DNA of 59,159 nucleotides from Candidatus Woesebacteria bacterium (lineage in GTDB: Bacteria > Patescibacteriota > Microgenomatia > UBA8517). Both the position numbers and the translations under genes were made by a program. Location: positions 1-59,159 of the forward strand of contig JAGUZK010000060.1 in assembly GCA_020060845.1 (NCBI GenBank), read 5' to 3'. Under the pieces are notes generated by a model. That model made no database searches, was not told where the DNA came from, and worked only from the letters and a program-made list of their open reading frames with translations. This document shows, piece after piece, positions 20,231-20,379 of this stretch; position 1 is the first letter of the stretch; each line of letters begins with the position of its first letter.

Positions 20231-20252
20231 AAAAAACCCCGCTTTTGCGGGG
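20231..20252 (-). terminator. Intrinsic terminator (attenuator 3:4 hairpin) upstream of pheS
   Basis: Minus strand CCCCGC-AAAA-GCGGGG-TTTTTT. Confidence 0.85.
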
Positions 20253-20293
20253 GTTAAAACTTTTTCTTGGTCCAGCAAAGCTTTAACTCCCGC

Positions 20294-20338
20294 TTAGGCG
20301 AGAGTAAAGCCAAAACTGTTTACTTCATTTGTTTGCAT
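20294..20338 (-). CDS. Putative pheST leader peptide (MQTNEVNSFGFTLA)
   Basis: 14-aa ORF whose two Phe codons lie at the start of segment 1 of a 1:2/2:3/3:4 attenuator; same position as E. coli pheM (between rplT and pheS). Confidence 0.7.
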   Translation of the reverse strand: MQTNEVNSFGFTLA

Positions 20339-20351
20339 GACAATTTTGTTG

Positions 20352-20379
20352 ATTTTATATTATTTAGTAGTTTTGTCAA
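20352..20379 (-). promoter_or_regulatory. Sigma70-type promoter for the pheS leader
   Basis: TTGACA-16 nt-TAAAAT at the 3' end of rplT. Confidence 0.55.

Follow-up and report, generated by a model that had tools for sequence, protein, structure and literature searches.

A candidate phenylalanine attenuator between rplT and pheST in a Candidatus Woesebacteria genome and its recurrence in related bacteria

Results

The rplT-pheS spacer holds a leader ORF, switchable helices and a terminator

Between rplT and pheS of a Candidatus Woesebacteria bacterium, a member of the candidate phyla radiation (CPR), lies a short element that is probably a ribosome-mediated transcription attenuator of the phenylalanyl-tRNA synthetase genes pheS and pheT (pheST). 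It was found in the window, by which we mean the whole 59,159-nt stretch analysed (contig JAGUZK010000060.1 of assembly GCA_020060845.1, positions 1 to 59,159), which belongs to an assembly of 0.85 Mb with 39.5% GC. The minus strand of the window carries the order thrS-infC-rpmI-rplT-leader-pheS-pheT, and all six protein genes scored above NCBIfam equivalog cut-offs. The gene for ribosomal protein L20, rplT (20360..20701; TIGR01032, 121.1 bits against a cut-off of 65.65), ends in a TAA stop codon at 20362-20360. The 240-nt spacer behind it holds the whole leader element and is followed by the genes under proposed control, pheS (19085..20119; TIGR00468, 263.6 bits against 237.45) and, second in the operon, pheT (17110..19083; TIGR00472, 477.4 bits against 402.65).

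The element was first proposed from the letters of the window alone, in what we call the sequence-only reading, as a phenylalanine (Phe) attenuator with a promoter, a leader open reading frame (ORF), switchable helices and a terminator. All of these parts are present on the minus strand. A promoter-like site, TTGACA-16-TAAAAT (20352..20379), lies within the 3' end of rplT and matches the consensus at 11 of 12 positions; TTGACA occupies 20379-20374 and, after the 16-nt spacer, TAAAAT occupies 20357-20352. The end of the -10 box and the leader ATG are 13 nt apart, which would leave the leader mRNA almost devoid of a 5' untranslated region (UTR). The same near-leaderless layout is found at a second Phe leader of this genome, described below, and at the leader of one relative (L039; loci are given by our labels). 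Direct reading of the sequence gives a leader ORF, MQTNEVNSFGFTLA, of 14 codons plus TAA (20294..20338; ATG at 20338, TAA at 20296-20294). Its Phe codons, both TTT, are codons 9 and 11 (20314-20312 and 20308-20306) and flank a GGC codon (20306..20314 together).

Three segments of this RNA compete for pairing. Segment 1, GGCUUUACUCUCGC (20298..20311), begins inside codon 10, takes in Phe codon 11 and pairs with segment 2, GCGGGAGUUAAAGCU (20279..20293), in the RNAfold minimum free energy structure. The leader stop codon sits within the 4-nt loop, CUAA, of the resulting 1:2 hairpin, and segment 2 starts 1 nt past the stop. According to folds and duplex tests, segment 2 can pair instead with segment 3, GUUUUAACCCCCGC (20247..20260), to form an antiterminator. 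The last 6 nt of segment 3 are also the 5' arm of an intrinsic terminator, CCCCGC-AAAA-GCGGGG (20252-20237) followed by T6 (20236-20231), which has six GC pairs and a folding energy of -11.6 kcal/mol (20231..20252 in all). Helix 2:3 takes up this whole 5' arm, and helices 1:2, 2:3 and 3:4 are mutually exclusive alternatives. The window holds an ORF with start and stop, cognate codons near its 3' end, a terminator, an antiterminator that excludes it and a 1:2 helix in the place expected of an attenuator.

The pairings are stronger than expected by chance. For the 240-nt spacer the folding energy is -63.6 kcal/mol (z = -3.74). Both alternative duplexes stood out from 500 dinucleotide shuffles each, 1:2 with -19.6 kcal/mol (p = 0.004) and 2:3 with -20.0 kcal/mol (p = 0.002). 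The free 108-nt RNA folds as 1:2 + 3:4 (-35.9 kcal/mol). A constrained fold, in which the region under a ribosome stalled at the last Phe codon was masked and the 3' arm of the terminator omitted, gave the 2:3 antiterminator (-23.1 kcal/mol). The sequence-only reading had cautioned that there are only two Phe codons, and this caveat stands: the window leader has the lowest Phe count of the set studied here. Because two Phe codons by themselves prove little, it is the relatives that decide the case.

Phe leaders recur in the family of the window's genome

The sequence-only reading had suggested a comparison of rplT-pheS spacers among relatives. The comparison drew on the rplT loci of 60 relatives and on the regions upstream of pheS in 10 further family members; the family set comprises 46 loci from 46 genomes, one of which ends at a contig edge, leaving 45 assessable. 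Phe-codon ORFs were found to recur in these spacers, and the stems change in sequence yet still pair. The device is present in 35 of the 45 genomes, as a separate leader in 24 and in a C-terminal extension of L20 in 11.

At the 24 loci of the separate type, the interval from rplT to pheS contains an ATG ORF 12-17 codons long, with 2-6 Phe and a terminator behind it. ORFs comparable to that of the window were found in 18 further genomes of the first family sample. The separate leaders fall into at least three sequence types according to their terminator cores, namely CCCCGC/GCGGGG (the window's type, 6 loci), GCUCUC..CACC../GAGAGC and CCUCC/GGAGG. The sequences of segments 1 and 2 follow the changes of the core. 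Codons 9 and 11, the Phe codons of the window's leader, encode Phe in L006, L008, L009, L028, L029 and L059 too. At five loci (L006, L019, L027, L029 and L037) the leader ATG overlaps the rplT stop codon as ATGA; the terminator of the L019 leader, which has an interrupted T tract, was added by hand.

Some loci depart from this pattern. Neither form was found at 10 of the 45 loci, eight of which have spacers of 7-100 nt that contain no terminator. Simple rplT terminators with no Phe ORF occur in L004, L005 and L010, which belong to a sister family, and in L026. Six loci (L051, L056, L150, L161, L202 and L215) were not counted as good candidates, owing to long ORFs or failed pairing tests. L155 has five consecutive Phe codons and lacks an ATG.

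The leaders are enriched in Phe

In 19 leaders of the first family sample, each chosen as the most Phe-rich ATG ORF near the terminator, Phe makes up 68 of the 246 residues after Met (27.6%), compared with 7.0% in 129 control small ORFs from the same loci. Thr and Asn follow at about 2.2-fold enrichment, and none other exceeds this value. At least three Phe are found in 15 of the 19 leaders, with separate leaders reaching 3-6, and in 8.5% of the controls. TTT is used 47 times and TTC 21 times, and the last Phe stands 1-4 codons ahead of the stop. TTY triplets number 68 in frame versus 21 and 33 in the other two frames, which hold 32 and 31 stops. The enrichment in cognate codons towards the end of the ORF is seen across the family leaders.

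A less biased check on this enrichment comes from comparing amino acids across a class sample of 89 loci. A terminator-linked small ORF with at least three Phe in its last 10 codons was found at 17 of these loci. The corresponding count for any other amino acid was at most 3 loci, and the reverse strand gave 5. In this sample only Phe is enriched.

Helix sequences differ and the pairings persist

The helix sequences differ between leader types, and all three pairings persist. To count pairing sequence by sequence, a duplex was scored as passing at p <= 0.05 against shuffles. Among 22 family elements, 16 passed for 2:3 and 13 for 1:2; among 22 candidates of the class sample, 14 passed for each. 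Two covariance models, one per state, were built from six type-A sequences, and both recover the other types, including those in which the leader is fused to L20. One model also gave weak matches of 20-21 bits in two loci outside the class, inside coding ORFs, and scores below about 24 bits were not trusted.

In the alignment fitted to 1:2 + 3:4, which has 28 rows and includes one spurious reverse-strand match (L009, 21.7 bits), 88.3% of cells are paired, with changes on both sides in 17 of 18 pairs. The covariation score was 0.553; shuffles gave 0.218, none of the 500 attaining the observed score, and slid partners gave at most 0.172. In the alignment fitted to 2:3 (23 rows), 88.4% of cells are paired, 9 of 10 pairs change on both sides, and the score was 0.529, compared with 0.213 in shuffles (0 of 500) and at most 0.164 with slid partners. 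MAFFT alignments across sequence types were inconsistent in structural register and were left out of the pair counts.

In some genomes the leader appears to be the tail of L20

Eleven family loci with no separate ORF (L033, L040, L042, L046, L047, L050, L055, L143, L158, L165 and L167) carry an L20 C-terminal extension of 6-9 residues ending in ..(A)GF.FT...*, as does the rplT that precedes the first terminator of L039. The extension is absent from the L20 of other genomes. Segments 2-3-4 begin 0-3 nt past the rplT stop at these loci, and the added ..GF.FT.. motif holds one or two Phe codons. Its GFT codons (GGC UUU ACY) repeat the RNA words of which segment 1 of the window is made. The 2:3 test was passed by six of nine fused loci, and the failure of L047 is a script artefact. 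To judge from this layout, the rplT tail appears to serve as the Phe-sensing leader peptide in the fused genomes.

The slot between rplT and pheS also holds other genes. At L047 (819-1412, minus strand), a prephenate dehydratase gene (Pfam PDT, 124.8 bits), another Phe-related gene, lies between rplT and pheS behind the fused-type terminator, and L026 is similar. Small ORFs with a strong Shine-Dalgarno (SD) sequence lie between the Phe attenuator and pheS at L002:1985-2209, L049:1130-1348, L045:1106-1342, L051:559-744 and others. None had a Pfam match. Some are Cys-rich and interrelated: those of L002 and L049 are 39% identical, that of L045 resembles an ORF in L199, and that of L051 one in L156. 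Judged by their position, these small ORFs would be co-regulated with pheST.

A conserved RNA motif, GAGCCGU-hairpin-U.AAAAGGC, was observed inside an outer stem at L009:1294-1322(-), L039:1205-1233(-) and L055:477-505(+), with a variant in L007. Its position is downstream of the rplT terminator or the Phe terminator, ahead of either a small ORF, a GNAT-like gene or pheS. Its hairpin stem covaries (AUAC/GUAU, GAAC/GUUC, AUUC/GAAU, CCCG/CGGG). The motif gave no Rfam match at E <= 0.1 and is absent from the window's genome.

Distribution beyond the family

The sample of the class outside the family comprised 79 genomes, with at most three per family. A leader with at least three Phe and a terminator was found upstream of pheS in 18 of these genomes, and 12 of the 18 leaders, from 9 families, passed the 2:3 test. 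The linkage of rplT to pheS with a leader recurs across the class. In 40 genomes from 40 families of the phylum's other classes, a terminator-linked ORF with at least three Phe in its last 10 codons was found in none; a terminator was present in 27 of the 40, and rplT adjoins pheS in only 6.

Several of the 18 leaders have the N-terminus MQ(V/I/E)PT in common. A different architecture was observed in other families of the class, where leaders start with MQ(V/I/E/A)PT (L142, L156, L179, L189, L169, L146, L163 and L226). Here the start-codon region, UGCAAGUUCCAACC, pairs with GGUUGGAUUUUGCA just past segment 2, and we attribute the conserved MQ..PT N-terminus to this pairing at the RNA level. 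A small covarying helix (ACAGC/GCUGU versus GCAGC/GCUGC) encloses the Phe codons, and the geometry is unlike that of the window's type. In L226, which shows the MQ.PT-type architecture, there is one Phe only.

In two sister-family genomes pheS is preceded by T-box-like leaders, at L031:1118-1473(-) with 47.8 bits and L018:873-1112(-) with 35.2 bits, both scores being below the Rfam gathering score of 93. On these matches, related families seem to use a tRNA-binding switch where the window's family uses a leader peptide.

The window's own genome contains a second Phe leader, MTTQRNNFVFFFAS, with four Phe, on contig C24 at about 30,500-30,630 on the plus strand (L230:1176-1331). Among the terminator-linked ORFs of this genome, in which 68 terminators were found, it is the only one with four Phe in the last 10 codons. 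A TTGACT promoter-like site lies upstream, and the three-helix design is like that of the window, with a CCUCC/GGGAGG terminator plus T6. The leader ends 28 nt before an ORF of 94-97 residues that has a strong SD sequence and gave no Pfam match.

The element matches no Rfam family above threshold

The sequence-only reading had set the element apart from the T-box leaders of Firmicutes, and this holds: among 12 Rfam matches at E up to 10, none in 19900-21800 was to the T-box. The leader matches in the window were below threshold, with Trp_leader at 24.2 bits (threshold 41) and Phe_leader (RF01859) at 21.6 bits (threshold 55; E = 1.3), and these matches to enterobacterial leader models were driven mainly by the terminator. 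At the gathering threshold, the loci of 20 relatives gave no match to any Rfam family. A search with pheS returned mostly Firmicutes; the closest named relative was a Candidatus Woesebacteria metagenome-assembled genome with 74% pheS identity, which places the window's genome in a Microgenomates-type CPR lineage.

Flanking regions of the window's element

Between the terminator and pheS lies a 111-nt stretch (20120..20230, minus strand) that is predicted to fold into a long hairpin, GGCCCAG...CUGGGCC, and contains TATAAT at 20132-20127. Neither the attenuator nor this stretch is repeated elsewhere in the genome, and a comparison by eye only revealed no evident similarity to the stretch in the closest relative, L002. 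At the other end of the gene cluster, thrS (21602-23365, minus strand; NCBIfam equivalog model above cut-off) has no Thr-type leader upstream, and the next ORF overlaps its start.

Discussion

A model for control of pheST by charged tRNA-Phe

We conclude, with a probability of roughly 85%, that the element acts as a ribosome-mediated transcription attenuator, with the supply of charged tRNA-Phe setting the read-through into pheS and pheT. The sequence-only reading of a Phe attenuator is supported in that the element recurs, within the family as well as in nine or more other families of the class, its pairings persist, and no T-box match was found in the window. We infer that the leader is translated, that transcription and translation are coupled and that the switch responds to Phe.

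In the proposed model, transcription would begin at the promoter-like site within the 3' end of rplT, or it would run on from the rplT operon, and a ribosome would translate the 14-codon leader. The footprint of the ribosome, on which the following steps depend, is established knowledge. When Phe-tRNA is plentiful, the ribosome would reach the UAA and cover most of segment 2, leaving segments 3 and 4 to pair, and the hairpin with its U6 tract would terminate transcription. When no ribosome is present, 1:2 would form and the terminator would form as well. When Phe-tRNA is scarce, the ribosome would stall at the UUU of codon 9 or 11 and cover segment 1 to about the stop codon. Segment 2 would then be free to pair with segment 3 as it emerges, no terminator would form, and RNA polymerase would run into pheST.

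Several observations weigh against this reading. The TTGACA/TAAAAT site is the best of 18 promoter-like sites in 16500-24000, and shuffled sequences average 17.4 such sites; it is not statistically separable from chance, and its function as a promoter is putative. No SD sequence precedes the window's leader ORF, but this genome makes little use of them: an SD-like 4-mer precedes 13% of 490 long ORFs, whose starts are only roughly assigned, compared with a background of 12%; a few small genes have very strong SD sequences. The sequence-only reading had also warned of a bypass, and the TATAAT in question does lie 7 nt before the pheS ATG, where it could drive basal, unregulated transcription that bypasses the attenuator. 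It failed the promoter scan, having no -35 match, and -10-like boxes precede pheS in some relatives too, as is also expected by chance in AT-rich DNA. At least two Phe are found in 24% of the 129 control ORFs, and the 2 of 14 in the window are not significant alone. Both the frame comparison and the numbers of Phe are inflated by the choice of the most Phe-rich ORF near each terminator. The relatives cannot be treated as independent samples, and the device is dispensable, as shown by the 10 of 45 family genomes that lack it. Finally, each of the two positive covariation counts was made on an alignment that had been fitted to the tested structure and leans towards that structure. When 2:3 was counted in a fixed register, that of L009, on the alignment of the other state, 63.2% of cells were paired compared with 62.0% in shuffles, 154 of 500 of which were as high. 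We read this last result as uninformative rather than contrary, because types differ in their 2:3 register and the model leaves the spacer columns out; it nonetheless counts as a negative.

Alternative explanations

We considered three other explanations, each of which is disfavoured because it conflicts either with the conserved in-frame Phe codons or with a design that recurs in different sequences. The first is that the switch reports translation in general, through a ribosome leaving rplT or the leader, and ties pheST to ribosome traffic or to L20 autoregulation. In the 11 family genomes with fused leaders, a ribosome finishing rplT would indeed mask segment 2, which begins so close to the stop, and the window's leader has only two Phe codons. 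Against it, the fused L20 tails keep a conserved added motif with one or two Phe codons, 15 of 19 separate leaders have 3-6 Phe with no other amino acid enriched, and the regulated gene is the Phe-tRNA synthetase. We regard this explanation as unlikely.

According to the second, the hairpin does no more than end the infC-rpmI-rplT operon, pheST has a separate promoter at the TATAAT, and the small ORF and the helices arose by chance in an AT-rich spacer. The rplT terminators of L004, L005, L010 and L026 show that such plain terminators exist, two Phe in 14 codons are common among small ORFs, and a -10-like box stands just before pheS. Against it, the ORF, the Phe positions and the three pairings recur in relatives with differing helix sequences, and the 1:2 and 2:3 duplexes of the window beat shuffles. 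Phe is moreover the only enriched residue, and the pattern is found in 0 of 40 genomes outside the class. We judge this explanation very improbable. Just as improbable is an RNA switch run by a factor acting in trans (uncharged tRNA-Phe as in a T-box, PheRS or L20) instead of the ribosome: operons for aminoacyl-tRNA synthetases (aaRSs) and ribosomal proteins are often autoregulated through RNA mimics, and L031 and L018 have their sub-threshold T-box-like leaders, but the window has no T-box match at E up to 10, its element of about 110 nt has no specifier or T-box sequence, the in-frame start, stop and Phe codons are kept while other residues vary, and the leader overlaps the rplT stop as ATGA in five loci and is fused to the rplT frame in others.

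Relation to known attenuators

Leader-peptide attenuation of E. coli pheST is a textbook case; the pheM leader has 14 codons, five of them for Phe, and in trpL two regulatory codons suffice. The window's element shares with pheM/pheST the slot between rplT and pheS, the gene order thrS-infC-rpmI-rplT-leader-pheS-pheT and the regulated genes. The leader length of 14 codons is also the same, whereas the window's leader has two Phe codons to the five of pheM, no SD sequence, an mRNA with probably almost no 5' UTR and a CPR host of about 0.85 Mb. The description of pheM is of a leader peptide with Phe codons followed by a succession of stem-loops which adopt two alternative structures (PMC5371410), and the window's short Phe-codon peptide with its alternative stem-loops is alike in this. 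The two have no detectable similarity in sequence or model. We suggest that the element works like pheM; the Rfam Phe_leader score does not support homology between them.

The four-segment logic of a 1:2 pause or anti-antiterminator helix, a 2:3 antiterminator and a 3:4 terminator, as well as the position of the leader stop codon just before segment 2, is shared with trpL and the enterobacterial leaders (RF00513, RF01859 and RF00512). Those leaders control biosynthetic operons, whereas the window's element precedes a tRNA synthetase. T-box leaders (RF00230) resemble it in that an aaRS gene is induced when its tRNA is uncharged, and differ in that sensing is by tRNA binding and not by the ribosome. 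The pheST operon of gamma-proteobacteria is the classical example of an attenuator at an aaRS gene, and the Streptomyces genes trpS and leuS also have classical attenuators (PMC1262725). The Streptomyces cases resemble the window's as leader-peptide attenuation of aaRS genes outside the Proteobacteria, and differ in amino acid, gene and phylum.

The sequence-only reading knew of no such attenuator in Patescibacteria, and our search of the full-text literature, which excluded subscription journals and supplements, found none from CPR or Patescibacteria either. The mechanism is known from E. coli pheM; what is new is its reach and distribution, not the principle.

Implications for CPR bacteria

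A broader interpretation, which we offer tentatively and rate at slightly below even odds, is that the window's element is one face of a class-wide regulon sensing Phe-tRNA in Microgenomates-type CPR bacteria. In this regulon the sensor would have been rebuilt several times: the L20 tail would act as leader in 11 of 45 family genomes, the start-codon region would be part of the switch in other families, and small genes would be gated too. If so, the fused form would make a ribosomal protein gene serve as an amino-acid sensor too, and the regulon would gate the 94-residue ORF elsewhere in this genome as well as the small Cys-rich ORFs before pheS in relatives. That E. coli has the identical gene order would, on this view, speak either for an rplT-leader-pheST unit of great age or for convergence that occurred repeatedly.

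The conservation of the element gives annotators a rule for spotting the leader and its fused L20 variant, and with about 110 nt and two swappable codons it is a compact handle for studying regulation from uncultured lineages with heterologous or cell-free systems. CPR bacteria have very small genomes with few recognised regulators and are mostly unable to make their own amino acids, and little is known of the ways in which they sense nutrient supply. A conserved attenuator of pheST would mean that these organisms monitor charged tRNA-Phe directly, and that transcription and translation are coupled in them.

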